Below, in pieces: positions 39,909 through 53,199 of a stretch of DNA of 64,000 bases (within the stretch, counting starts at the first letter, position 1; every line of letters begins with the position of its first letter). The DNA is from Candidatus Latescibacterota bacterium. Lineage in GTDB: Bacteria > Latescibacterota > UBA2968. The stretch covers positions 32,001 through 96,000 of the forward strand of contig OZ220741.1 of NCBI GenBank assembly GCA_965116885.1, given 5' to 3'. The notes beneath the pieces were generated by a model. That model was not told where the DNA came from. It worked only from the letters and a program-made list of their open reading frames with translations, and made no database searches. Both the position numbers and the translations under genes were made by a program.

Positions 39909-40304
39909 ATGTTGATCTCGATTGACCACCACAATGGCATACCCGTTTTTCGCCAGATCATCGACCAGGTGAAATTCCACGTAGTCAGCGGGCTACTCGC
40001 GCCGGGAGACGAATTGCCCTCGACCCGTGCATTATCGGGACAACTGGGACTCAACCCAATGACAGTAAGCAAAGCGTACAGCCTGTTGGAAGCAGAGGGA
40101 TTGGTCGAGCGGCGGCGCGGACGACCTTTAACCGTAAAACCCTTACGAGATCAGACCGTACACGCTGAAAAACTGGCACAACTCAAACCACAACTCACGC
40201 AATTGGCAACAATGGTTCGGCAGTTGGGGATTGATCGGGCGGAAGTCGTAGATCTTTTTCTCTCCATCTTAGATACCCTGGAGGAAGACAATGATGGCAC
40301 ATAA
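39909..40304 (+). CDS. GntR family regulator, YtrA subfamily
   Basis: PVFRQI...PGDELPSTRALS.QLGLNPMTVSKAY; short C-terminus; precedes an ABC ATPase. Confidence 0.9.
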   Translation: MLISIDHHNGIPVFRQIIDQVKFHVVSGLLAPGDELPSTRALSGQLGLNPMTVSKAYSLLEAEGLVERRRGRPLTVKPLRDQTVHAEKLAQLKPQLTQLATMVRQLGIDRAEVVDLFLSILDTLEEDNDGT

Positions 40305-41184
40305 CCAGACATCTGTATTTGAAGCCACATCTTTAACTAAAAAATTCAGTGACACCACAGCGCTCAACTCCGTAACGCTCTCTCTCGGGGCGCATCGCGT
40401 AATTGGATTGATCGGACGCAATGGCGGAGGCAAAACCACCTTGATCCAGCACATGATCGGCCTGTATTTGCCCACAGAGGGAACGTGTCAAACACTGGGA
40501 CAAACGTGTGATCAGTTGGGGGCAAACGAACTCTCGCGCATAGGCGTAGTACACCAGGAAAATCGCTTTTTTGAATGGATGACCGTCAAACAGCATCTGC
40601 GCTATGTGTCCTCATTTTACGAAATATGGGACCGCGACCTGGAAGCGCATCTGCTGCGCGAACTCGAACTGGAAACCTCCGCGCGCGTGGGCAACCTGTC
40701 TTCGGGGAATATGCAAAAATTGGGAATCATTCTGGCAGTATGTCATCATCCCGAATTATTGATCTTAGATGAGCCGGTCAGTGGCCTGGACCCTATCGCG
40801 AGAGAGACATTGTTGAAATTTCTAATGACACTCCTATCTGAAGACGAAAACACAATCGTGATCTCCTCCCACATTCTGCGGGACATCGAAAAAATAGTAG
40901 ATTGGGTCGTATGCCTCGACGAAGGTGTGGTCAAAGCCGACAAATCACTGGACGATCTGCACCAGACCTACGCAAAATGGACAGTCACAGGAAACAATCT
41001 GCCCCAGCAATTTTCTGAACCTTATATCCTGTCGCAAACAGTGAACGGAGTACAGGCACAATTGATCGTCAACCAGACACTGGGCAACGCAGACCAATTC
41101 AAACAGACTTATCAGGCTGATGTCACCAGTCAGTCCCTGAACCTCGACCAGCTATTTCCCATCCTGATTCGGGAGGGCGCGTAA
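40291..41184 (+). CDS. ABC transporter ATP-binding protein (YtrB/CcmA-like)
   Basis: GRNGGGKTT, LSSGN, LDEPVSGLD, SSH. Confidence 0.92.
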   Translation: MMAHNQTSVFEATSLTKKFSDTTALNSVTLSLGAHRVIGLIGRNGGGKTTLIQHMIGLYLPTEGTCQTLGQTCDQLGANELSRIGVVHQENRFFEWMTVKQHLRYVSSFYEIWDRDLEAHLLRELELETSARVGNLSSGNMQKLGIILAVCHHPELLILDEPVSGLDPIARETLLKFLMTLLSEDENTIVISSHILRDIEKIVDWVVCLDEGVVKADKSLDDLHQTYAKWTVTGNNLPQQFSEPYILSQTVNGVQAQLIVNQTLGNADQFKQTYQADVTSQSLNLDQLFPILIREGA

Positions 41185-42650
41185 TGGGTATTCTTCCATT
41201 TTTCACATTTTGGCGAAGCCCCGTTTACATTATCATCGCCTCTTGTGTAGGCTGGTTTCTCTTCCAAAACGCGCTGTCTTCCCACGCACATCAGTTCTCT
41301 GTATTCTTTTTATTTTTCTTTATTGAACTTTACGGTGGGATTATTGGCGATATTGTAGGAGAGAACCAGCATCGGATGCTCACATGGACCCTGCCACATT
41401 TTCGCAAGCGTCTTATGATCTGGTCAATAATTGTCGGACTATTTTCCGTTGTGGCGTGGACGATTGTGCTGACTTATGCACCCCTCAATGCGTCCTGGTC
41501 AACGATTTTGCTCCTGAATATGTGCCTCTATTGTTTGGGATTTACCCTTTTTGGGGGATGGAGTTTAGATACTAATCGCCCCGGGTTGATTTACAAGTGT
41601 CGAGTTCCCCTCTCATTGCTGGTGTTGGCATTAGCCTATTTGTGGCAAGAGGTGCTCGCTTTTGGAGAGCAACAAAAGTTGGGATTGGCTCTCATCGCAT
41701 TCGCTATCGCAATTGGAACTCATTATTTCGCCTTTAACCAGACAGCTTTTCGCAGTAGGCCATTTTCTTTTTTTGTTGGTTCATTCTACTCGGGTTTTGA
41801 TCCTCAAACCCGGGAGATTCAAAAGAATGCAATGAAGATGCGAAAGACGAGTACCAGGGTATGGCATATCGATCACATCGGTACAGGCATCTTCAACTGG
41901 CTGCGTGCCGGTCAGTACGAAAATTCTGGTCTGGGCGGGTGGAGATGGCCACTTTCCGCGTTTGGCGCAGCATTGGTAATGGTATTCATTTTTTTGAGCA
42001 TGGAGACGAATTTCTTAGGATTGTTGGGTCAATCTCCCTACGATTTTGAGACCGTCTCGAAAATGATTTATCACATGATCTTTTATTGTGACCAGTTAGA
42101 TCCCAAGATCGCCCTTAATATATCGTTTTCTGTGTGCTTCGGCATTTATATGTTTATTTTTTTCTCTGCTTTTTTCTTAAAAAGAGGGTATGTCTATCCG
42201 CTTTCCCGCACCCAGCGGATGCGAATTCAGTATTGCGATTTGCTGGTGCAAAATATTTCTTTTATTGCCGCATCTATTCTGGTGTTGGGCGTTCTGGGCA
42301 TCCTATCTGGAGCAAAGGTTGGGTTTGTGTCTGAAGGAAATATTTCTCTGGGAATACTTCGCGTTTTTGGATGGGTAGTGGTTCTGATACCGATATTTCA
42401 GTGGTTGCAAGTCAAATATGACCTGTATGAATTTCAAAGAATGCTGAGACATCGGTGGAGGTTCGCTCTTGTGTTACTGATCATGATTTTGAGTATTGGA
42501 ATCGCTGGTTTTACCAGTCTGATGCGTGTCTGGTATCCCGATTTGATGCTGATCTATGAAGTGCCAATCCTATTTGTCTGTTTTATTCTCTTGCAATGGT
42601 TCCTATTGGCTCGGCTCAAACGGTATTATGCGACACAGGATCTGGTATAG
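41184..42650 (+). CDS. Multi-pass membrane protein, putative ABC permease (copy 1)
   Basis: About 12 TM segments; TAATG-coupled to the ATPase; paralogous to 43628-45112. Confidence 0.75.
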   Translation: MGILPFFTFWRSPVYIIIASCVGWFLFQNALSSHAHQFSVFFLFFFIELYGGIIGDIVGENQHRMLTWTLPHFRKRLMIWSIIVGLFSVVAWTIVLTYAPLNASWSTILLLNMCLYCLGFTLFGGWSLDTNRPGLIYKCRVPLSLLVLALAYLWQEVLAFGEQQKLGLALIAFAIAIGTHYFAFNQTAFRSRPFSFFVGSFYSGFDPQTREIQKNAMKMRKTSTRVWHIDHIGTGIFNWLRAGQYENSGLGGWRWPLSAFGAALVMVFIFLSMETNFLGLLGQSPYDFETVSKMIYHMIFYCDQLDPKIALNISFSVCFGIYMFIFFSAFFLKRGYVYPLSRTQRMRIQYCDLLVQNISFIAASILVLGVLGILSGAKVGFVSEGNISLGILRVFGWVVVLIPIFQWLQVKYDLYEFQRMLRHRWRFALVLLIMILSIGIAGFTSLMRVWYPDLMLIYEVPILFVCFILLQWFLLARLKRYYATQDLV

Positions 42651-42678
42651 ATTTAACCTTATCAACAAGGAAGAAGAG

Positions 42679-43518
42679 ATGACGTATCCAAATCTGAAGC
42701 AGTCTATTTGGCTGCTGGTATTATTGGTCCTGATTAGCGCAGGTTTGGGGATACCGGTTGCGATCCTGGGGATGATTATTGACCAGCCGTTACACAAAAG
42801 TCCTTATGCGATCTGGCCATTGACCCTGGTGAGTTTTGTTTTGGTCGTACACTATGTTTTGCGTCGGACCGATCGAACCTGGGCTTCGTGGTCTGATATC
42901 ATGCCCATAAAAGCCATTTCGTGGCAATTGCTACTGCCACTTGTGGTATCTATCCTTGGATTGCTTATCGTCTCTTTCGAATTGGGAAAAGTGATGATGT
43001 CTTTGGCCCCAACGCCCGAGGTGGTGAAGGATACACTCCGCGGGTTGGTCGGCAAAAAAACCTCTTATTGGTTGGCCTTTTACGGCGCAGTGATTCAAAC
43101 ACCTATCATAGAAGAGGCACTTTTTAGAGGCATTATTGTGGGTGGTTTGTTGGCGTATTGGTCAAAATATCAGGCCGCTATTTGGTCGGCAATTTTGTTT
43201 GGCATATATCACCTGAACCCAGCGCAATTTCCCGTGGCCTTCATATTGGGGCTTGTATTCGCATGGTGGATTATTCAAACGGGGTCTTTGTTGCCTTGTA
43301 TGCTGGGACACGCATTGAACAATTTTCTGGCTATTACCCTGGCACGATCGGGAATACCGGGCTTTAAAAACCCAAAGGCTCTGATCTTTCTGCCGTGGTG
43401 GGTGATCGTGTGTGCCGTACTATTGGCCGCGATTGGATTGTGGTGGTTTTATCAAGTAGCAAAGCGCGAAGAAACTAATCAGCTTGAAGCGGAAGTTGAA
43501 CCCGAAAGACATTGTTGA
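42679..43518 (+). CDS. CPBP (Abi/CAAX type II) intramembrane metalloprotease
   Basis: EEALFRG, FGIYH, HALNN. Confidence 0.9.
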   Translation: MTYPNLKQSIWLLVLLVLISAGLGIPVAILGMIIDQPLHKSPYAIWPLTLVSFVLVVHYVLRRTDRTWASWSDIMPIKAISWQLLLPLVVSILGLLIVSFELGKVMMSLAPTPEVVKDTLRGLVGKKTSYWLAFYGAVIQTPIIEEALFRGIIVGGLLAYWSKYQAAIWSAILFGIYHLNPAQFPVAFILGLVFAWWIIQTGSLLPCMLGHALNNFLAITLARSGIPGFKNPKALIFLPWWVIVCAVLLAAIGLWWFYQVAKREETNQLEAEVEPERHC

Positions 43519-45112: not shown

Positions 45113-45333
45113 TAACCGAGAGTTTTTAAGTAGCAGAACAAAAAGCATAATTTTTGTATAATTATGCATATATGCATTTGTTTTCTAATAGTTTTTTTAA
45201 TTTTTTATACGCGTTAATAGCGTTTAATAACTTGCAGCGTGTCGCCAGGGTTACGACAATAAGAGACACGAAGTATTGGCGTATCCATTATTTTGCACAC
45301 GTATGCGTTTCTATACCTGCGAAAATAACGTGT

Positions 45334-48300
45334 ATGTTTGAAAACGGAACGATTCTCGACAAAAGATATCAAATCCAGACGCATCTGGGAACCGGGGGCA
45401 TGGGCGAAGTCTATCGGGTTTTGGACCTGGAGCAAGGTCAGGATTGTGCGCTCAAAATTTTGAATACCATGGCGGATCAGAAGGCTGTGCATCGCCGTTT
45501 TCACAGAGAATTTCAGGTGTTGAACAGATTTCAGCACCCGCGCCTGGTAAGCACCTTTGCCTGGGGCTTTGCCGAAGATCGTCCCTATTTTACAATGGAA
45601 TATTTACCCGGAAAGACATTGGAAAAAATAATTGCTGATCGTGCACATTCAGGGCAATTCCGGACATCCCACTTTTTCGATTTGATACAACAACTTGCCG
45701 AGGGATTGGCTTATATCCACGCGCAGGGTGCGGTGCATCGCGATCTCAAACCGTCCAATATTATGGTATTGGAAACAGAAGAGGGGATTGAAACCACGAT
45801 TCTGGATCTGGGACTGGCGAAACTCAGACATCTGCATAGCGTTTCCATTACGCAGACGGGCACAGCCATTGGGACAGCAGAATATATGTCGCCAGAACAG
45901 GGTAAAGGGTTGTGGGTGGATCATCGATCAGATTTGTACTCATTGGGCATAATTTTATACGAGATGCTCACAGGCACACCGCCTTTTTCGGGACAAAATC
46001 CAATATCTGTTATTATGAAGCATATTCGAGAGGTGCCGCCACCAATGGGCGAAATCAATATCGCGGTTCTCGAACAGACGCAACAAATTGTGTCGAAGTT
46101 GCTGGCAAAGGGAGCTGTTGATCGTTTTCAGTCGGCAGAAGAACTCATGCACGCCTTACCATCGGGGTCTATGCTACCCGATGACGAGCAACGCGATGTA
46201 CATAGAAAAGTTATGCGGTCGCAATTTATCGGGCGAGAATCCGAAATGAAGACATTGCGCGCAATGTTGCAGGATGTACAGGCTGGCAAACAGCGCGCGG
46301 TTCTAATCTCCGGTGAGTCCGGTGTGGGGAAAACGAGACTGGTTGAAGAACTATTGGGCGACGCTTTGATCCATGATTTTCTGTGTTTGAAAGGCACAGG
46401 TCAGGAAGAGGGAGGACAAATATACGGTGCGTTGATCAGTGCTTTTCAAGAGACAGTGGATTTGGTGGCAGAGTTGCCCGATCCAGTAGAATCGGACAAG
46501 TTTTCTGTTATGGAGCGCTGGTTGCAGTTATTAAAAACTCTGCGGCAGAAACAACCCATTGTGTTGTGTTTGGAAAATATTCAATGGCTGGATGAATTGA
46601 CATTGGAATTTTTACAGTATGTGTTGCGCGATCCAGAGCCCTGCCCGTTTTTGTTATGCCTGACCTGTCAATGGTCCAACCTGGAACCGCTTCTAGAGGA
46701 AGTTGAAAATTTTATACACAACAATGTATTTGCTAAGGCGACCCGGATTCAGTTGAAAAATCTACCCCGTGAAGAGGTGGGGTATTTAGCAGCGTCAATG
46801 TTGGGGGAGCGATCCATACCATCCGATGCATTGCAAACCCTGTTCAGGGAAACGGGTGGGCAACCCCTGTTTGTCGTGGAAGCAGTGAGGACACTGGTGA
46901 ATGCCGATGTGGTTCGGCAGAATGTGTACGGCGATTGGCAGTGGGGAGAATTTCCCGAAACACTATTATCCGATGATTTTTCAGAGATTTTGCACAGGCG
47001 CGTAGCTGCTCTTCCTACGGTACAACAGCAAGTGTTGGAATACGCCTGTGTTTTTTTAAATGATTTTTCTTTTGACTTACTGGCGGCGGTTTGGCGCGGC
47101 GATGAGTTGGAATTGCTGGATATACTGGACGAATTGATTGCAGAAGGGCTTTTGACAGCTTGTGGAGAGGATGAAGATCAATATCGTTTTGCACAGGAGT
47201 TGTGCAGACGTGCAATTTATGACCGGATGAAAAATGTGCGGCGACGACTGTTTCATCGAGAAATTGGCAATGCTCTGGAACAGACGGAAGATGTAGAAGA
47301 ATTGACGGAAGAACTGGCAGATCATTTCGCGGCAGCGGAAGAACGAGATAAGGCTATAAAATATACGCGCATAGCAGGTAAAAAAGCATTGAAAAAACAC
47401 GCCTATCGTCAGGCGAGAATGCGGTTTGAGGCTGGGCAGGACTGGACAGCTAATGACGCCTTTGAATCACAAGCAGATACCATCGATTTTTTGTGCGATT
47501 ATGCAGATGCGTTGCGCAATTGTAGTCAGCACAATAGCGCACTGGAACTTTTAGACGAGGCAAAAGCGTTATTGCCCGATGATCGAAATGATTTGAAAGC
47601 GCGTATTTTGTGGAATGAAGGCATTATTCACAGCGTACTTCAACATGGGGGAATAGCAGAAAAATATATGCTGGAGGCATTGCAGCTTTATCGGGAGTTG
47701 GATGATCTCGACGGAGAAATTCAAGCATTGGGTGGTTTGTCTTATTTGTGTGATGTATCTGGGCGACACGAAGAAGCTATTGCATATATGTATCGGGAAA
47801 TAGAGAAACATCATGCGTTGGAAGAAGCCCAGAACAAGGCTATCGTACAAGTGCGAGAAGGTATGGTTGCATTGGTGGAATTTCGGTTTGAGACAGCCAG
47901 GGCACATGTGGAAGCGGCTGTAAAGACATCTCGGCAACCTGGACTTGAACACCATCGTATTGGGGCACTCAATTTACTTTCAAGAGTTTATTTATATCTG
48001 GGTGATCTCGACCAGGCAGAAGCCGTTTGCCACGAAGCCATTGGCGAGTGGCAAAAACGAGGCGATGCTTACTGGGAAGCAATGAATCTTCTCCGGTTGG
48101 GAGAATTGGCACTGGAACGGGAACGCGGTGATTTTGCAGAGGCGTTGGAATATACTGAGATTGCATCAGAGCGATTTTTGGAAACACCGAGAAGAGATTA
48201 TGTCTATCGCGCTTATGCGATTGCGGCAACGGCTGTTGCAAGAATGGGAGATACAGAAGCGGCACTTGAATGGGCAGAAAAAGCCAGTGAAGGTGTACAG

Positions 48301-50148
48301 CAAACATCGGGTATGTACACGGGCATATTGCCTCTGGTGCATTGCGGTATTGGTGTTGCCTTAGACAAAGCTGGGCGGATAGCTGAGGCTGAAGAGGCTT
48401 TTGAGCAGGCGATTGAATGCCGAAGAGAATCCAAAGGCGACCACTGGGCGCGTGCGCTGCTGATGGCAGGGGAGTTTTATCTCCAGCGCGATGATGTATC
48501 AAAAGCGCAAGCACATCTCAAAGCGGCAAAACAGGCGTTTGAAGAAATGCAAATGTCCTATTTTTTGGAGAAAACACAGGTGTTATTAGGTCAATTATCT
48601 GGCGACAAAGATGGTCACCACAGGGATGCCGCACCCAGTTCTGAAAATTCAGTCGATACGTTGTCTGTTGATCGCTGGCGCTTGCTTTACGATGTGAGCC
48701 AGGAATTGACTACAGAGCGCGATGTCAAGGTGCTATTGGATCGGACTCTGGGTAATTTGTTGACTGTTTATCCAGCAGAGCGGGTGCTTGTTGCGATTAA
48801 AAATGAGACCCCAAAAGGCTTTGCGGTTGATGCCGTACGCCACTACAATTTAGAAGTAGATGATGCAGAAGCACTGAGTCAGGGTATTATTCGTCGGGTT
48901 ATTGAGACAAATGAGCCCGTTTTGAGCATTGATGCACAGACAGACGACAGGCTCAATCAGTACCAGAGCGTGATAGACTACGACATTCGGTCTGTATTGT
49001 GTGTACCCCTATTTCATGTTAGCGAAGGTGTGATGGGTGCGCTATATGTGGATCATCGTGGCTTGGGTAACGCATTTTCTGAAACAGACCAGACGTTTTT
49101 ACAGGCATTTGCGAATCTGGTGGGGGTGGCACTGGTCAATGCGAGGATGTACGAACAACTGGAAGAGAAAGCGCGATATTTGCAGCAACAGATTGAAAAA
49201 AGGTACCAGCTTGGCGATCTCGTCGGGCAAAGTGATGCGATGCAGACCATCTACCATCTTATAGAACGCGCGGCAAAGAGCGATATTCCCGTGCTTGTGC
49301 AGGGTGAAACAGGTACGGGCAAAGAATTGGCTGCGCGTGCCATACACTACAATAGCACGCGCAAAGACCAGCGATTTTTGTCGCAAAATTGCGCGGCTCT
49401 TTCACCAGAGTTGTTGCAGAGTGAGTTGTTTGGATACAAAAAAGGCGCGTTTACTGGCGCGACTGAAGATCATAAGGGGATTTTTGAGGCTGCCAATGGG
49501 GGTACGGTTTTTCTGGATGAAATCGCCGATGCCTCTCCACAGTTGCAAAGGAGTTTGTTGCGGGTATTGCAAGAAGGAGAGGTGCGGCGTATGGGAGAAA
49601 CAGAAGATCGTCCAGTAGATGTGCGCATTATTGCAGCGACTAATCGAGACTTAAAAAAGGAAGTTGAAAAAGGCTCTTTCCGCGAAGATTTGTATTACCG
49701 GTTGCGTGTGATTCAGATCGATATGCCGCCTTTGCGAGAACGCCTTGAAGATGTGCCATTGTTGGCCGAACTTATGCTCACCCGAGCAAAAGAAGATGCA
49801 AACAAGTCGGTTGGGGGGCTAACAGTAGGTGCAATAAAGACCCTTGTAAGTTACAACTGGCCTGGCAATGTGCGCGAGTTGGAGAATGAGATTCGACTGG
49901 CTGTGGCATTGACAAAAGAAGAGGGTGATATTACGCCCGATTTATTTTCAGAATCCATCGGGCACGCGGTGTCAGGTGTCTCTGTCGAATACCAGGGGCG
50001 TTTACAAGACCGTGTGCAGGCGTATGAAAAACGAGTAATTCGAGACGCGCTCGAAAAATGCGTGGGCAATATTACGCATACAGCCAGAGAATTGGGGATG
50101 ACGCGCGCTGGCCTACAGAAAAAGATCAATCGTTTGGAGTTGAGATAG
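45334..50148 (+). CDS. Hybrid Ser/Thr kinase - P-loop NTPase - TPR - GAF - sigma54 enhancer-binding protein with Fis-type HTH
   Basis: GTGGMGEVY, HRDLKPSN, DLG, GTAEYMSPE; GESGVGKT; helical repeats; SVLCVPL..GALYVD; GETGTGKE, GAFTGA, FREDLYYRL, WPGNVREL; TARELGMTR. Confidence 0.9.
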   Translation: MFENGTILDKRYQIQTHLGTGGMGEVYRVLDLEQGQDCALKILNTMADQKAVHRRFHREFQVLNRFQHPRLVSTFAWGFAEDRPYFTMEYLPGKTLEKIIADRAHSGQFRTSHFFDLIQQLAEGLAYIHAQGAVHRDLKPSNIMVLETEEGIETTILDLGLAKLRHLHSVSITQTGTAIGTAEYMSPEQGKGLWVDHRSDLYSLGIILYEMLTGTPPFSGQNPISVIMKHIREVPPPMGEINIAVLEQTQQIVSKLLAKGAVDRFQSAEELMHALPSGSMLPDDEQRDVHRKVMRSQFIGRESEMKTLRAMLQDVQAGKQRAVLISGESGVGKTRLVEELLGDALIHDFLCLKGTGQEEGGQIYGALISAFQETVDLVAELPDPVESDKFSVMERWLQLLKTLRQKQPIVLCLENIQWLDELTLEFLQYVLRDPEPCPFLLCLTCQWSNLEPLLEEVENFIHNNVFAKATRIQLKNLPREEVGYLAASMLGERSIPSDALQTLFRETGGQPLFVVEAVRTLVNADVVRQNVYGDWQWGEFPETLLSDDFSEILHRRVAALPTVQQQVLEYACVFLNDFSFDLLAAVWRGDELELLDILDELIAEGLLTACGEDEDQYRFAQELCRRAIYDRMKNVRRRLFHREIGNALEQTEDVEELTEELADHFAAAEERDKAIKYTRIAGKKALKKHAYRQARMRFEAGQDWTANDAFESQADTIDFLCDYADALRNCSQHNSALELLDEAKALLPDDRNDLKARILWNEGIIHSVLQHGGIAEKYMLEALQLYRELDDLDGEIQALGGLSYLCDVSGRHEEAIAYMYREIEKHHALEEAQNKAIVQVREGMVALVEFRFETARAHVEAAVKTSRQPGLEHHRIGALNLLSRVYLYLGDLDQAEAVCHEAIGEWQKRGDAYWEAMNLLRLGELALERERGDFAEALEYTEIASERFLETPRRDYVYRAYAIAATAVARMGDTEAALEWAEKASEGVQQTSGMYTGILPLVHCGIGVALDKAGRIAEAEEAFEQAIECRRESKGDHWARALLMAGEFYLQRDDVSKAQAHLKAAKQAFEEMQMSYFLEKTQVLLGQLSGDKDGHHRDAAPSSENSVDTLSVDRWRLLYDVSQELTTERDVKVLLDRTLGNLLTVYPAERVLVAIKNETPKGFAVDAVRHYNLEVDDAEALSQGIIRRVIETNEPVLSIDAQTDDRLNQYQSVIDYDIRSVLCVPLFHVSEGVMGALYVDHRGLGNAFSETDQTFLQAFANLVGVALVNARMYEQLEEKARYLQQQIEKRYQLGDLVGQSDAMQTIYHLIERAAKSDIPVLVQGETGTGKELAARAIHYNSTRKDQRFLSQNCAALSPELLQSELFGYKKGAFTGATEDHKGIFEAANGGTVFLDEIADASPQLQRSLLRVLQEGEVRRMGETEDRPVDVRIIAATNRDLKKEVEKGSFREDLYYRLRVIQIDMPPLRERLEDVPLLAELMLTRAKEDANKSVGGLTVGAIKTLVSYNWPGNVRELENEIRLAVALTKEEGDITPDLFSESIGHAVSGVSVEYQGRLQDRVQAYEKRVIRDALEKCVGNITHTARELGMTRAGLQKKINRLELR

Positions 50149-50160
50149 GCGGTGAACAGG

Positions 50161-50280
50161 TGCATCCAGATGTATGCAGTAGTGCATCCAACTGTATGCA
50201 CTTGTTTATCTTTATATAATTCAGATAGTTATGTTTGTTTTCTTGTAAATAGAGATTATAGGTGCATCCTGTCGGATGCA
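50161..50280. promoter_or_regulatory. Three palindromic upstream activator sequences TGCATCC-N4-G(G/T)ATGCA
   Basis: Sites at 50161-50178, 50183-50200 and 50263-50280 (the third has perfect arms). Confidence 0.75.
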
Positions 50281-50342: not shown

Positions 50343-50368
50343 AAGCACTTGAAAATTTTCAAGTGCTT
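50343..50368. promoter_or_regulatory. Perfect 26-bp palindrome overlapping an IHF-like site
   Basis: AAGCACTTGAAAATTTTCAAGTGCTT; the overlapping TTTCAAGCACTTG (50339-50351) is one mismatch from WATCAANNNNTTR. Confidence 0.5.
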
Positions 50369-50389
50369 TTTTTGTGCTGAGACGACCTT

Positions 50390-50404
50390 TGGCACGGATC
50401 TTGC
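50390..50404 (+). promoter_or_regulatory. sigma54 (RpoN) -24/-12 promoter
   Basis: TGGCACG-GATC-TTGC with exact GG-N10-GC spacing, 55 nt before the precursor ATG. Confidence 0.9.
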
Positions 50405-50459
50405 GCTATAAAAAGGGCAAACCGTTATGGCGCAAGATTTTTCCTTAAAGGAGGATAAC

Positions 50460-50639
50460 ATGGCAACACGACGCAAGTTGACTTTGGTCAATGGAACAAT
50501 AGATCAAGAAGGTAGCATTCTTATGTATCAGACTGTAAAGAGTGTTGAGGTTCACTGCTCCCCTTATTCTTTTTCCGTTCCCCTCGTGCCTTTCCCTGAT
50601 GATGACGACGATTGGGACGATTTTGATCAAGCTGAATAA
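50460..50639 (+). CDS. Putative RiPP precursor peptide (59 aa)
   Basis: AAGGAGG RBS then MATRRKLTLVNGTIDQEGSILMYQTVKSVEVHCSPYSFSVPLVPFPDDDDDWDDFDQAE; 26 nt upstream of an RRE-rSAM gene. Confidence 0.75.
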   Translation: MATRRKLTLVNGTIDQEGSILMYQTVKSVEVHCSPYSFSVPLVPFPDDDDDWDDFDQAE

Positions 50640-50665
50640 ATCATCTCTATTTTGAGGAGTGTACT

Positions 50666-52096
50666 ATGCTATGCATTCAGAAATGCGACATGCATCTTTT
50701 TGAAACCGAGGAGCAAAAACAGCCGATTGTCTATCAGGTTGAGACCGGTCTGTTTTTTGAACTGGACACCCTTTTCCAGTCAATTTTAGAGTGTTGTGAG
50801 GGCTTGTCTGCTTCACAGGTTGTTCAAGTATTGGTTGATCAATACGAGGCAGAAGAAATTGCTCAGGCTATCGGGGAATTGGCGCAGGTGGGTTTGATTG
50901 CTGATGGCGCACTACCTGTAGTAGCCAATGTACCGACAACAGAAGGGGTAGCTGCCTGTGGCGTGTCGCAGACAGATCGTTTGCAGGTGTCGTTGCACAT
51001 TTCGCATACATGTAATATTCAATGTGCTTATTGCTTTGCTCACGGTGGAGATTATGGCGGTAAGGCCATGCTGATGCAACCAGATGTTGCCGAGCAAGCC
51101 ATACGCTGGATCGTCACTGAAGCTCAGGGGTTTGGGCGGTGCCAGATTGATTTTTTTGGCGGGGAGCCGCTTCTGAATTTTCCGCTGTTGCAGAAGCTCG
51201 TTCCATTTGCCAAATCCCTGGGCGCGCGATTGGATGTACAGGTTGGTTTTGGTATTGTGACCAATGGCACGCTGTTGACCGACGAGATGAAGCAATTTTT
51301 GGTCGATGAAAAGTTTCAAATTAAGGTTAGCCTGGATGGTGGGCGCAAGACACAGGATCGCATTCGCAAGTTTCACAATGGTTCCGGGACTTATGATGTT
51401 GTGGCAAAGAATGTAAAGAAATTGGCTGCTGAGGCACCTGAGCGCGTGTATTTGCAGGCTGTTATGACAGCTTATGATATGGATGAAGATCAGATTGCCA
51501 ATGCGTTGCGCTCGCTGGGTACTGATAACGCGCTTGTTGATCCGGCTGTTGTTTCACCGGATGCGCCCTATGCGATTCGGGAAGAACACATACCCGTTTT
51601 GAAGCAGCAAATTCACAAGCGGAGTAGGCGTGCGCTCAAAGCCATTCTAAATGGTGAAGAGAATGAGGAGTTTGATCCGCGGATTCAGAAACTGTTGACG
51701 CGACAAAAATCCTGTCATGGATGCCTGGGTGGTAAGCAGTATCTGGCTGTTGCAGCGGATGGGGCGATTTATTTTTGTTCGAGCTTGGCCGATGCGCCTG
51801 AGTTTAAGATGGGTGATGTGTTTGCGGGTATTGATCGCGAAAAACAGCAGCATTTTGACGCGCAGTTCAATGTCAACAATCGGCCTGAGTGCAAGACCTG
51901 CTGGGCGCGCAACCTGTGTGGTGGTGGGTGTCTTTGGGAGGCGCGGACGACGACGGGTGATCCGATGTATCCCAACCCTGTTGCTTGTGAGCAGACGCGC
52001 TATCGCTATGAACTGGCGATGGAGATGTGTATGGAAATTTCAGAGGCAGATGGTTCTTTGTTGCAACGACGTTATGATCTGGAAGTGGCATCATAA
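50666..52096 (+). CDS. Radical SAM/SPASM peptide maturase with N-terminal RRE-like domain
   Basis: CNIQCAYC, FFGGEPL, TNG, SLDG; SPASM GC..G..YLAV..DG.IYFC...CKTCWARNLCGGGC...C; GAGGAG RBS. Confidence 0.9.
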   Translation: MLCIQKCDMHLFETEEQKQPIVYQVETGLFFELDTLFQSILECCEGLSASQVVQVLVDQYEAEEIAQAIGELAQVGLIADGALPVVANVPTTEGVAACGVSQTDRLQVSLHISHTCNIQCAYCFAHGGDYGGKAMLMQPDVAEQAIRWIVTEAQGFGRCQIDFFGGEPLLNFPLLQKLVPFAKSLGARLDVQVGFGIVTNGTLLTDEMKQFLVDEKFQIKVSLDGGRKTQDRIRKFHNGSGTYDVVAKNVKKLAAEAPERVYLQAVMTAYDMDEDQIANALRSLGTDNALVDPAVVSPDAPYAIREEHIPVLKQQIHKRSRRALKAILNGEENEEFDPRIQKLLTRQKSCHGCLGGKQYLAVAADGAIYFCSSLADAPEFKMGDVFAGIDREKQQHFDAQFNVNNRPECKTCWARNLCGGGCLWEARTTTGDPMYPNPVACEQTRYRYELAMEMCMEISEADGSLLQRRYDLEVAS

Positions 52097-52206
52097 GCAG
52101 AATTGACTGTATATTGAGTACTTGCTTAAAAACGACATCCAAATGGGGAGCACTCTATTAGATGCCGTTTATTTTGCTTTTTTGGGTGGGCGACAGATTG
52201 TCGGTG

Positions 52207-53199
52207 ATGGGAAAAATATACCAATCAAAAAAATCCGGTCTCTATAAATGGCCGCTCATTGGACAGCATTCCTCACTCTTAGACGTGCAAAAGCGCGCGT
52301 ACCGCGTGGCGAATAGCGAATTGCCCGTCAACATCAATGGTGAGACTGGCACGGGTAAGGAATTGCTCGCCCGTTATGTTCATGGGATTAGCCACCGCAA
52401 CAAGGGACCATTTGTAACCGTTGACTGCGGCATACTCTCTTCTGAAATGTCGCGCAGCGAGTTATTTGGACATGTTCGAGGTGCTTTTACCGGTGCCAGT
52501 GAAACGCGCACCGGACTGGTTGAATCTGCCCACGGCGGTACGCTATTCCTCGATGAAGTGGGCGAATTGCCAGCCAATCTTCAGTTGCAATTGCTACGCC
52601 TGGTACAGGAGCAGGAATTTCGCCGCGTAGGCGAAGCATCCATGCGCCGATCTGACGTGCGCCTGGTCACTGCGACACACTGCAACTTGCGAAAAATGGT
52701 GCGAAAAGGAACTTTCCGAGAAGATCTCTATTACCGCTTAAATGTCGTACCCCTGCATTTGCCACCCCTGCGGAAGCGACTGAGCGACTTACCTCTTCTG
52801 GTCACACATTTTTACAAGAACATGAACGGATACACCCGCGCGTTTTCCCCCGAAGTCATTCAAAGGATGTCGCGTTATGCATGGCCCGGCAATGTTCGGG
52901 AACTACAACACGAAGTCGCCCGATTGATGGTCATGGCCGAAGGTAAAATTATCCGCGTATCCGATCTGCACCCTCGCATTCGAGGGGCAAAGGCCGAGGT
53001 CGATGTATTTGACCTCCCCTTTAAGGAAGCCAGACAGCTGGCGAACAGCCGGTTTATGCGAGAGTATCTTCACAGAGCTTTGCAGCGAACACAGGGCAAT
53101 GTAACCCAGGCAGCGCGAGAATGCGGGATTGGCCGACAATATTTCCAATTGCGTATGTCTGAACACGGTCTAAAGTCGGCATCTTACAAACAAAAATAA
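52207..53199 (+). CDS. sigma54-dependent activator lacking an N-terminal sensory domain
   Basis: GETGTGKE, GAFTGA, FLDEVG, FREDLYYRL, WPGNVREL, C-terminal HTH; only ~15 aa before the AAA+ core. Confidence 0.88.
   Translation: MGKIYQSKKSGLYKWPLIGQHSSLLDVQKRAYRVANSELPVNINGETGTGKELLARYVHGISHRNKGPFVTVDCGILSSEMSRSELFGHVRGAFTGASETRTGLVESAHGGTLFLDEVGELPANLQLQLLRLVQEQEFRRVGEASMRRSDVRLVTATHCNLRKMVRKGTFREDLYYRLNVVPLHLPPLRKRLSDLPLLVTHFYKNMNGYTRAFSPEVIQRMSRYAWPGNVRELQHEVARLMVMAEGKIIRVSDLHPRIRGAKAEVDVFDLPFKEARQLANSRFMREYLHRALQRTQGNVTQAARECGIGRQYFQLRMSEHGLKSASYKQK

Follow-up and report, generated by a model that had tools for sequence, protein, structure and literature searches.

A candidate sigma-54-controlled radical-SAM peptide cassette with a hypervariable six-residue loop and a dedicated giant regulator in Latescibacterota

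Introduction

In a 64,000-nt stretch of the Candidatus Latescibacterota bacterium contig OZ220741.1 (positions 32,001 to 96,000, forward strand; hereafter the window), a very large regulator gene, a short open reading frame (ORF) for a 59-residue precursor peptide with a single cysteine, and a gene for a radical S-adenosylmethionine (radical-SAM) maturase follow one another, with a sigma-54 promoter between regulator and peptide. Only this three-gene module of regulator, precursor and maturase is conserved across the sites at which the cassette occurs. We think that it probably constitutes a sigma-54-controlled cassette for a peptide that is ribosomally made and modified after translation (RiPP), whose product would be a single-thioether loop peptide that its own regulator may sense. 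Enzymes of this class are known; what is new is the single-Cys precursor family, the hypervariability of its loop, and the sigma-54/regulator wiring. The more unusual parts, i.e. the sigma-54 promoter, the palindromes upstream of it, the giant regulator, the occurrence of the cassette in multiple copies and the loop hypervariability, lie beyond an initial annotation of this DNA, which had drawn attention to the peptide and its enzyme.

Clusters labelled "ranthipeptide" and "RRE" by antiSMASH have been counted, without description, in metagenome-assembled genomes (MAGs) of sponge Latescibacterota, and that report states that the function of ranthipeptides "remains unknown" (PMC12993501). In the literature that we could cover, which excludes most subscription journals, we found neither the precursor nor its motif described, no account of a sigma-54/kinase regulator linked with clusters of this kind, and no functional natural-product study of this uncultured phylum.

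Results

Precursor peptide family

With each species represented by a single genome, relatives of the maturase are encoded by 197 of 214 candidate stretches; 79 loci were kept, comprising a clade of 43 (L001-L043) and 36 outgroup loci. The protein search returned ~60 clusters at 296-1020 bits and then a fall to 248 bits, where SCIFF-type maturases start. Nearly all clade loci come from MAGs of Latescibacterota; a few carry the labels Gemmatimonadota or Poribacteria, and 11 chromosomes carry two to three copies of the cassette each, at ~90% identity. The window has one; no second copy was found within its 64 kb.

The initial annotation had described a 59-aa ORF with a strong ribosome-binding site (RBS) ahead of a SPASM enzyme with an N-terminus like a RiPP recognition element (RRE), and the coordinates (Table 1) confirm this layout. 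The frame that opens at 50460 encodes MATRRKLTLVNG...HCSPYSFSVPLVPFPDDDDDWDDFDQAE, in which C33 is the sole Cys; a longer in-frame start at ATG 50427 (70 aa) was rejected, since the extra stretch is not conserved among relatives. Among the 31 close loci, a set from which L030, beginning inside the enzyme gene, was left out, the peptide ORF stands upstream of the enzyme in 30, and the sole miss (L003) is a locus cut by a contig end that retains the C-terminal part of the peptide. Looked for beside homologous radical-SAM genes, the conserved upstream peptide is therefore present, with its invariant Cys and acidic tail. The gap between peptide stop and enzyme start is 26 nt in the window and 21-29 nt in 28 of the 30 close loci. 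It widens to 304 nt in L015 (2480-2949) and L024 (5535-6001), where a 52-codon ORF (MSVQ..LIKKRDHLAYL...) lies in between, and the peptides of these two loci stop early, at ...WDDF or ...DDDF, so that the last residues of the acidic tail appear dispensable.

Alignment of the 31 precursors divides the peptide into a leader, a variable linker, the Cys, a six-residue loop, a conserved Pro-rich segment and the tail, with M1, K6, L7, L9, N11, G12, C33, V40, P41, F45, P46 and D49 invariant throughout. The frame C-x6-V-P-[PLT]-[LVMA]-[PS]-F-P holds in 30 of 31 (L026 has x5), and the acidic tail that follows VPxxPFP is D/N-rich with W-D-D-F; W52 is replaced by R in five peptides and is missing in L024. 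Conservation of C-S-P-Y together with the acidic tail, as the initial annotation had envisaged, therefore stands for the Cys and the tail and fails for S-P-Y, which lies within the hypervariable loop. A CX3D spacing occurs in three precursors (L001, L008, L035) and is absent from the peptide of the window.

Pooled Nei-Gojobori estimates over all pairs set the loop apart from the rest of the gene pair, with a nonsynonymous divergence (dN) of 0.881 and a synonymous divergence (dS) of 0.864, as compared with 0.135 and 0.506 for the leader, 0.075 and 0.643 for VPxxPFP, 0.124 and 0.505 for the acidic tail, and 0.048 and 0.430 for the enzyme. The adjoining Cys codon alternates between TGT and TGC (proportion of synonymous differences, pS, 0.97) without the residue ever being altered. 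With dN/dS near 1 amid purifying selection elsewhere, the loop is thus unconstrained or diversifying within a constrained gene. Loops differ even at the syntenic site, whose flanking genes match those of the window at 89-95% identity, and include SPYSFS, PPGRVV, PSGDIA, RPFPVS and EPGWVT.

The claim that the precursor fits no recognised family held up: NCBIfam and Pfam scans returned no family (0 in each), and a search of 1.84 billion protein representatives gave only nine matches at E <= 1e-3, of which three (P0122, P0125, P0129) look frameshifted, P0122 also being without the Cys. Having one invariant Cys, the peptide falls outside the definition of SCIFF precursors, and an ESM Atlas look-up gave no usable match to it. 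Six loci with an enzyme ~50% identical all have a related but distinct upstream precursor, with the leader ..L..ING..D..G.. and the core C-x-W-P-x-F-[PR]-x-L-P-P-P and no acidic tail. A 197-aa metagenomic protein (P0128) contains ...KQDHCHPWSVSLPPIPFWDPP... twice, in a frame C-x6-L-P-P-I-P-F that resembles the precursor core, and may be a mis-called ORF across a tandem array of a further precursor variant.

Maturase and leader recognition

The enzyme ORF contains CNIQCAYC, GCLGGKQYLAVAADGAIYFC and CKTCWARNLCGGGC. Pfam recognizes Radical_SAM (56.9 bits), SPASM (22.4 bits, cut-off 21.5) and Fer4_12, and places PqqD/RRE at residues 22-69 with 17.8 bits, below its cut-off of 23.4. The best NCBIfam matches are the SCIFF maturase TIGR03974 (266.4 bits, cut-off 425), the nif11-type maturase TIGR04064 (254.9 bits, cut-off 518.7), QhpD TIGR03906 (246.9 bits, cut-off 453) and PapB NF047865 (229.6 bits, cut-off 340), with weaker matches to the cyclophane formers YhhB (89.7 bits) and FxsB (77.8 bits). 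A profile of the 31 clade members finds CteB (5WGG) first in the PDB, over the full length and at E 8.8e-91, the next match being an anaerobic sulfatase maturase at E 1.5e-26; Foldseek, run on an AlphaFold2 model (pLDDT 85.9, pTM 0.83) whose N-terminus is a winged helix (strands 4-32, helices 35-74), likewise ranks 5WGG first (TM 0.71/0.76, 30% identity). The kinship to CteB, PapB and QhpD proposed at the outset is thereby confirmed, in that the enzyme is an RRE-radical-SAM-SPASM protein nearest to the CteB/SCIFF, nif11, QhpD and PapB maturases, and the peptide-enzyme pair, compared with characterised families, reaches no curated family cut-off.

Cluster ligands were placed on the enzyme through the profile-PDB alignment, starting from the CteB numbering listed in PMC10177961. 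All are invariant in 31/31 enzymes: C116/C120/C123 for the radical-SAM cluster (CX3CX2C), C353/C371/C422 as the predicted three-Cys ligand set of auxiliary cluster 1, and C409/C412/C418/C441 as predicted ligands of auxiliary cluster 2, which together keep the seven-Cys SPASM motif (C353-x12-G366-x4-C371, C409-x2-C412-x5-C418-x3-C422, C441; 31/31). An extra Cys, C350, is present in only 20 of the 31 and is thus not invariant, so auxiliary cluster 1 would keep three Cys ligands as in CteB. For PapB and Tte1186, the same source describes binding of the substrate Cys or SeCys to an enzyme iron, assigned to auxiliary cluster 1 (PMC10177961). As far as sequence can tell, the enzyme has the CteB/PapB/Tte1186 layout and, by curated criteria, is a member of none of those families.

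Enzyme and peptide, each supplied as its own alignment, were also modelled as a complex, which gave an ipSAE of 0.79 (runs 0.79, 0.79, 0.80), with 0.02 for the best of three controls; the ipSAE mark applied to such a model is reached by 116 of 157 solved complexes and by 2 of 215 mismatched pairs. The runs had at least 47% of contacts in common and a partner pLDDT of at least 48. The contacts predicted with confidence are those of peptide residues 3-14 with strand 28-34 and helix 64-75 of the enzyme, so that the invariant leader residues are predicted to sit on the RRE.

Promoter and upstream sites

The pattern GGCAC-N5-TTGC is found in 31/31 loci, 57-79 nt upstream of the peptide ATG, and in the window it extends to a -24/-12 promoter that is unique in the 64 kb (Table 1). 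A stricter pattern, TGGCAY-N5-TTGC, was set aside, as it occurs in 18 of 31 loci only and the alignment confines the variation to the first base. Between peptide stop and enzyme start, the scan for terminator-like sites found none, the site it lists at 50735-50752 lying within the first 90 nt of the enzyme ORF; being 26 nt apart with no such site found between them, the peptide and enzyme genes are probably co-transcribed.

Further upstream, three palindromes of the form TGCATCC-N4-KKATGCA, candidate upstream activating sequences (UAS), account for all matches to that pattern in the window, where 0.01 would be expected, and 27 of 31 loci contain one or more TGYA-N10-TRCA sites. A terminator-like hairpin with a T-run sits between these palindromes and the promoter and probably ends the regulator transcript. 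The palindromes are supported as sites of the regulator by the way its helix-turn-helix (HTH) tracks their type: among 22 full-length regulators, an HTH with ...GLQKK goes with TGCA..TGCA sites (13/13) and one with ...VGL[H/Y]KK with TGTA..TACA sites (6/6), while SLYRK regulators have no site (L001, L010) or TGTATCAT-type sites (L024). This pattern suggests that paralogous circuits are separately wired, and would reflect two or three evolutionary events only. An AT-rich stretch between the second and third palindromes (ATATAATTCAGATAGTTATG, 50205-50245) is conserved across loci as well, and resembles what we take to be a bending site of the integration host factor type. The promoter of the type GG-N10-GC (-24/-12), a putative activator with GAFTGA and HTH, and the upstream palindromes together are the features by which a sigma-54-dependent operon is recognized from sequence.

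The dedicated regulator

Directly upstream of the peptide, the regulator is predicted to combine, in order, a Ser/Thr kinase, an AAA_16 (STAND) NTPase, a tetratricopeptide repeat (TPR) solenoid, a GAF domain, a sigma-54 AAA+ domain and a Fis-type HTH. Its translation contains HRDLKPSN, the Walker A motif GESGVGKT and GAFTGA, and Pfam reports Sigma54_activat (252 bits) and HTH_8. Residues 1-50 of the listed ORF are poorly conserved (0.51) and an ATG is present at 45334 (MFENGT...), which is probably the true start. TIGR03903 matches the kinase part only (residues 95-332), at 290.5 bits against a cut-off of 705.75. The least conserved parts are residues 851-950 in the TPR region and 1601-1650 in the HTH, with TPR conservation at 0.68-0.69.

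In 38 of 43 clade loci the gene immediately upstream of the peptide encodes a homologue of this protein, with identities falling as low as 35-41%; the outgroup loci have none (0 of 36). Three of the five misses are contig ends; the remaining two, L042 and L043, are without a regulator.

Co-variation of loop and regulator

Pairwise distances between loops (the residue before Cys, Cys and x6) were compared by Mantel tests with 100-residue windows of the regulator and the enzyme. Correlation peaks in the TPR region, in windows 811-910 to 886-985 (r 0.41-0.45), a level that 0 of 2000 permutations reach, the family-wise maximum included. A minor peak lies at regulator residues 1286-1435 (r 0.25-0.27, family-wise p 0.017-0.038); all other regulator windows stay at r <= 0.19, the HTH at 0.07, and the enzyme at -0.18 to 0.10. 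Over 26 loci the TPR segment gives r 0.37, reached by 0 of 10000 permutations, and four control segments give r 0.08-0.15, reached by 205-1247 of 10000. Mutual information points to the same region: 22 of the top 40 columns for the loop register (C-P-x vs C-x-P) fall in regulator residues 801-1000, and the informative TPR columns cluster at 821-824, 886-897 and 904-918.

Individual loci illustrate the association. On the TPR tree L010 and L016, whose loops SPTPIA and RPFPVS are similar, pair as sisters (100/99), yet the GAF-HTH tree puts them in opposite halves; L014 and L027 pair on the GAF-HTH tree (96), yet differ in both loop and TPR type. A tree built with care from the TPR segment (175 residues) leaves most inner branches, 16 of 23, unresolved. 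Linkage alone was found insufficient as a cause of the correlation, given that segments nearer the peptide do not correlate, and species relatedness was rejected, given that L002, the orthologous locus whose flanks are most alike (UvrD-like 95%), has another loop. An AlphaFold2 model of regulator residues 741-1180 is an all-helical solenoid (pLDDT 86.5) with a likeness to peptide-binding TPR proteins, among them LGN/Pins complexes and MalT domain III (1HZ4, TM 0.50/0.58), that is generic, as is its highest TM match, a phage Rap with its pheromone (8RTC_B, 0.57/0.69).

Genomic neighborhood

An ABC ATPase, two membrane proteins and an Rce1-like protease precede the regulator (Table 1). This block possibly serves as an export, immunity or processing set for the peptide, and is linked to one chromosomal site only. 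On the other side of the enzyme lie a gene for a short sigma-54 activator, which is conserved (89-94%) only at the syntenic site, and a helicase gene; no second consensus sigma-54 promoter was found near the activator gene (52162-53199).

Cassettes elsewhere have other neighbors. In paralogous cassettes, a ~300-aa protein with LEFGSGPS and IIDGPP, class I methyltransferase-like and without a Pfam match, follows the enzyme; it is found in 14 loci overall, directly after the enzyme in 12 (L001, L005-L007, L009, L010, L013, L015, L017, L018, L024, L026) and additionally in L002 and L020. As a cassette part at the present site it was discarded, the window holding no homologue. A second radical-SAM paralogue lies downstream of the first in five distant cassettes, where glycosyltransferases often come next, and in L012 two ABC exporters come after the enzyme.

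Table 1. Positions of the cassette, its predicted sub-features and neighboring genes (window numbering, except in the last row, where numbering is that of the locus named)
Feature	Position	Strand	Remarks
Precursor peptide ORF	50460-50639	+	ATG at 50460; 59 aa = MATRRKLTLVNGTIDQEGSILMYQTVKSVEVHCSPYSFSVPLVPFPDDDDDWDDFDQAE
RBS AAGGAGG	50448-50454	+	AGGAG kept in 31/31 aligned upstream regions
Precursor leader	residues 1-20; recognition residues ~3-14 = 50466-50501	+	alignment of 31 precursors
Precursor variable linker	residues 21-32	+	alignment of 31 precursors
Invariant Cys33 codon	50556-50558	+	alignment of 31 precursors
Hypervariable six-residue loop SPYSFS	50559-50576	+	alignment of 31 precursors
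Conserved VPLVPFP	50577-50597	+	alignment of 31 precursors
Acidic tail of precursor	50598-50636	+	alignment of 31 precursors
Maturase ORF	50666-52096	+	476 aa; RRE / radical-SAM / SPASM, CteB-like
Sigma-54 promoter (-24/-12), TGGCACGGATCTTGC	50390-50404	+	sole exact TGGCAC-N5-TTGC in 64-kb window
Terminator-like hairpin AAGCACTTGA-N4-TCAAGTGCTT + T-run	50343-50376	+	11 pairs; pattern in 25/31 loci
Candidate UAS palindromes	50161-50178, 50183-50200, 50263-50280	+	TGCATCC-N4-KKATGCA; candidate regulator-HTH binding sites
Dedicated regulator ORF	45154-50148	+	1,664 codons as listed from TTG; roughly 1,600-aa protein
Variable TPR segment, candidate specificity region	47584-48108	+	regulator residues 811-985; co-varies with loop
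ABC ATPase	40291-41184	+	upstream, window site and 12 syntenic loci
Membrane protein, 488 aa	41184-42650	+	no Pfam/NCBIfam family
Rce1-like (CPBP) intramembrane protease	42556-43518	+	listed ORF overlaps preceding gene by 95 nt
Membrane protein, 494 aa	43628-45112	+	no Pfam/NCBIfam family; 66% identical to 41184-42650 product
Sigma-54 activator, 345 aa	52162-53199	+	AAA+ (GAFTGA) and HTH only, PspF-like layout, no sensor domain
UvrD-type helicase, 1,093 aa	53228-56509	+	first ~485 residues without Pfam match
Second radical-SAM paralogues	L032 7545-9026; L038 8298-9689; L040 2677-4050; L041 8839-10239; L042 7372-8838		

Discussion

We propose that the regulator would act on the sigma-54 promoter driving the peptide and enzyme genes, and that the N-terminal RRE of the enzyme would bind the leader (K6, L7, L9, N11, G12) as an added beta-strand, by homology to CteB, PapB and Tte1186. 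The same homologues suggest that the Cys33 thiolate may ligate the open iron of the three-Cys auxiliary cluster 1, and that a 5'-deoxyadenosyl radical would take an H atom from a downstream residue to form one thioether, with a mass change of -2 Da. We infer that the acceptor would be among the invariant post-loop residues, V40/P41, F45/P46 or D49. An acceptor placed after the loop would yield a macrocycle that displays the six hypervariable residues, followed by the Pro-rich segment and the acidic tail. The co-variation further suggests that the regulator TPR segment (~811-985) could recognise the loop, be it that of the precursor or of the product. On this view every cassette would match one peptide to one sensor, with HTH/UAS wiring of its own, and would operate as a feedback or signalling circuit with specificity types.

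Several observations weigh against this picture. The thioether chemistry is argued solely from homology at ~30% identity, the enzyme reaches 0 of 71 listed NCBIfam cut-offs, and of the residues that ranthipeptides usually employ as acceptors (Asp, Glu, Asn, Thr) only one, D49, is invariant, and it lies 16 residues from the Cys. The ~50%-identity group differs in its conserved core and lacks the acidic tail, and around its Cys it keeps only W, P, F and L. The complex model locates the leader only and leaves the core unplaced; moreover, a CteB-CteA complex has already been solved, so that the pass of the model indicates likeness and may reflect memory. The conserved three-gene module comes without an exporter or a leader protease, and six of the 31 loci (L007, L011, L017, L020, L028, L035) have a broken regulator reading frame, the longest frame there being 1117-1374 aa or <1000 aa; either some copies may be decaying or the long-read assemblies may contain errors. 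As for sensing, the Mantel permutations ignore relatedness, and the backbone tree offers few independent contrasts in loop class, i.e. four on supported branches and seven on all. The TPR columns, chosen post hoc, agree in 2.5-3.6 of the four contrasts and oppose in ~0 (sign-test p 0.125-0.25, with 0.125 as the lowest value attainable), and loop class changes five times on the TPR tree vs seven times on the backbone tree, which is a small difference. Because the permutations ignore relatedness and independent contrasts are few, we regard sensing of the peptide by the regulator, as read from these sequences, as a supported hypothesis and not as a result.

The same cassette might instead carry out other chemistry, with a C-C or C-O cross-link on aromatic residues or Pro (F45, W52/F55, or Y/W/F of the loop), or another radical modification, and with Cys33 solely as a cluster ligand or anchor, or in some other role. 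SPASM enzymes also form cyclophane and ether links (PMC10114670), and this alternative draws on the weaker matches to YhhB and FxsB, on F45 being invariant in the close group and W and F in the distant core, and on the missing canonical acceptor mentioned above. We nonetheless consider it unlikely, because the best matches include the thioether formers SCIFF, QhpD and PapB at about three times the cyclophane scores, auxiliary cluster 1 with its three Cys, the site of substrate-Cys binding in the CteB/PapB/Tte1186 group, is conserved, the Cys is the sole invariant residue in the variable half of the peptide, and W52 is itself replaced or missing in some precursors. It is far less credible, and in our view highly improbable, that the short ORF is no substrate at all and encodes a small acidic protein or a leader-peptide-like regulatory ORF, the enzyme acting elsewhere: the complex score could indeed reflect memory of CteB-CteA, but peptide and enzyme are adjacent in 30/31 close loci, at tight gaps in 28 of these 30, and in 6/6 distant loci, the peptide has the conserved leader and variable core of a RiPP precursor, and the model brings precisely the invariant residues of the leader onto the canonical strand of the RRE.

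A different function for the product is rather doubtful, yet has more in its favor than either of these. The peptide could be an exported, bacteriocin-like antimicrobial with its loop in an arms race, its regulator sensing an unrelated cue and the TPR/loop correlation being a by-product of the history that fast-evolving segments share. Genes for ABC ATPases, membrane proteins and CPBP proteases are common in bacteriocin export and immunity loci, and just such an ABC ATPase, two membrane proteins and an Rce1-like protease lie immediately upstream in the window and 12 syntenic loci; the two ABC exporters after the enzyme in L012 would fit, as would the lack of significance in the independent-contrast test. 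These transporter and protease genes, however, are tied to one chromosomal site and absent from paralogous cassettes, whereas the regulator accompanies 38 of 43 clade loci, and variable regulator segments nearer the peptide (HTH, 1011-1185) are uncorrelated with the loop, contrary to what linkage or shared history would produce. Going beyond the cassette as such, we advance only tentatively the view that it is a new peptide-signalling unit, in which the TPR sensor of the cassette's own kinase/STAND/sigma-54 activator would read a peptide cyclised by the radical-SAM enzyme, or the precursor of that peptide. Loop and sensor types that match, together with HTH/UAS wiring that diversifies separately, would allow two to three orthogonal circuits in one genome, and species would exchange alleles. 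Any thioether that forms would have as its acceptor Val, Pro or Phe, which known ranthipeptide enzymes do not use, or else a long-range Asp.

Among known systems, the closest are CteB/CteA and Tte1186/Tte1186a (SCIFF, thermocellin-type ranthipeptides; 5WGG), with which the present enzyme shares the RRE-barrel-SPASM order and all ten cluster Cys; the leader of the peptide is predicted on the RRE strand here too. It differs from CteB/SCIFF in being ~30% identical, in having a substrate with one Cys as compared with six and with a hypervariable loop, a Pro-rich segment and an acidic tail, and in its sigma-54 control through a dedicated giant regulator. PapB, which joins Cys to the C-beta of Asp in the CX3D motifs of PapA (freyrasin), is also homologous, and the present peptide is likewise Asp-rich after Cys with D49 invariant, but it has one Cys and not six repeats, and its nearest invariant Asp lies 16 residues away. 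QhpD, which installs intra-protein Cys to Asp/Glu thioethers in QhpC, is a homologous enzyme acting on a dehydrogenase subunit, as opposed to a 59-aa peptide, and Pfam scans found no quinohemoprotein genes among the neighbors.

On the regulatory side, streptococcal Rgg/SHP operons of the streptide type combine a radical-SAM RiPP with a TPR-containing, peptide-sensing transcription factor; their signal SHP is a separate peptide, and Rgg is small and of sigma-70 type. Here, by contrast, the RiPP would itself be the ligand, as precursor or as product, and the regulator is a ~1,600-aa kinase/STAND/GAF/sigma-54 activator. The N-terminal kinase-AAA_16-TPR arrangement beside a RiPP operon recalls the TOMM kinase/cyclase fusion (TIGR03903) and the MalT/LAL STAND proteins, but the output here is GAF, sigma-54 AAA+ and HTH, and not a cyclase or a LuxR HTH. 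Like the pherotypes of Rap-Phr, ComQXP and Agr, the cassette has a hypervariable peptide, a co-varying sensor segment and several alleles per site; unlike them, it has no sequence relationship to those systems, no evident export and re-import, and few independent co-variation events.

As the precursor stands outside the Cys-rich substrates of the SCIFF, PapB and QhpD enzymes, it might bring to light an acceptor residue or ring size that is new to radical thioether chemistry. A loop that evolves at the neutral rate or faster within a constrained gene would offer a natural scaffold for sequence-diverse macrocycles. Finally, with a hard-wired sigma-54 promoter and a regulator whose TPR segment tracks the loop, the purpose of ranthipeptide-type peptides would become directly testable.

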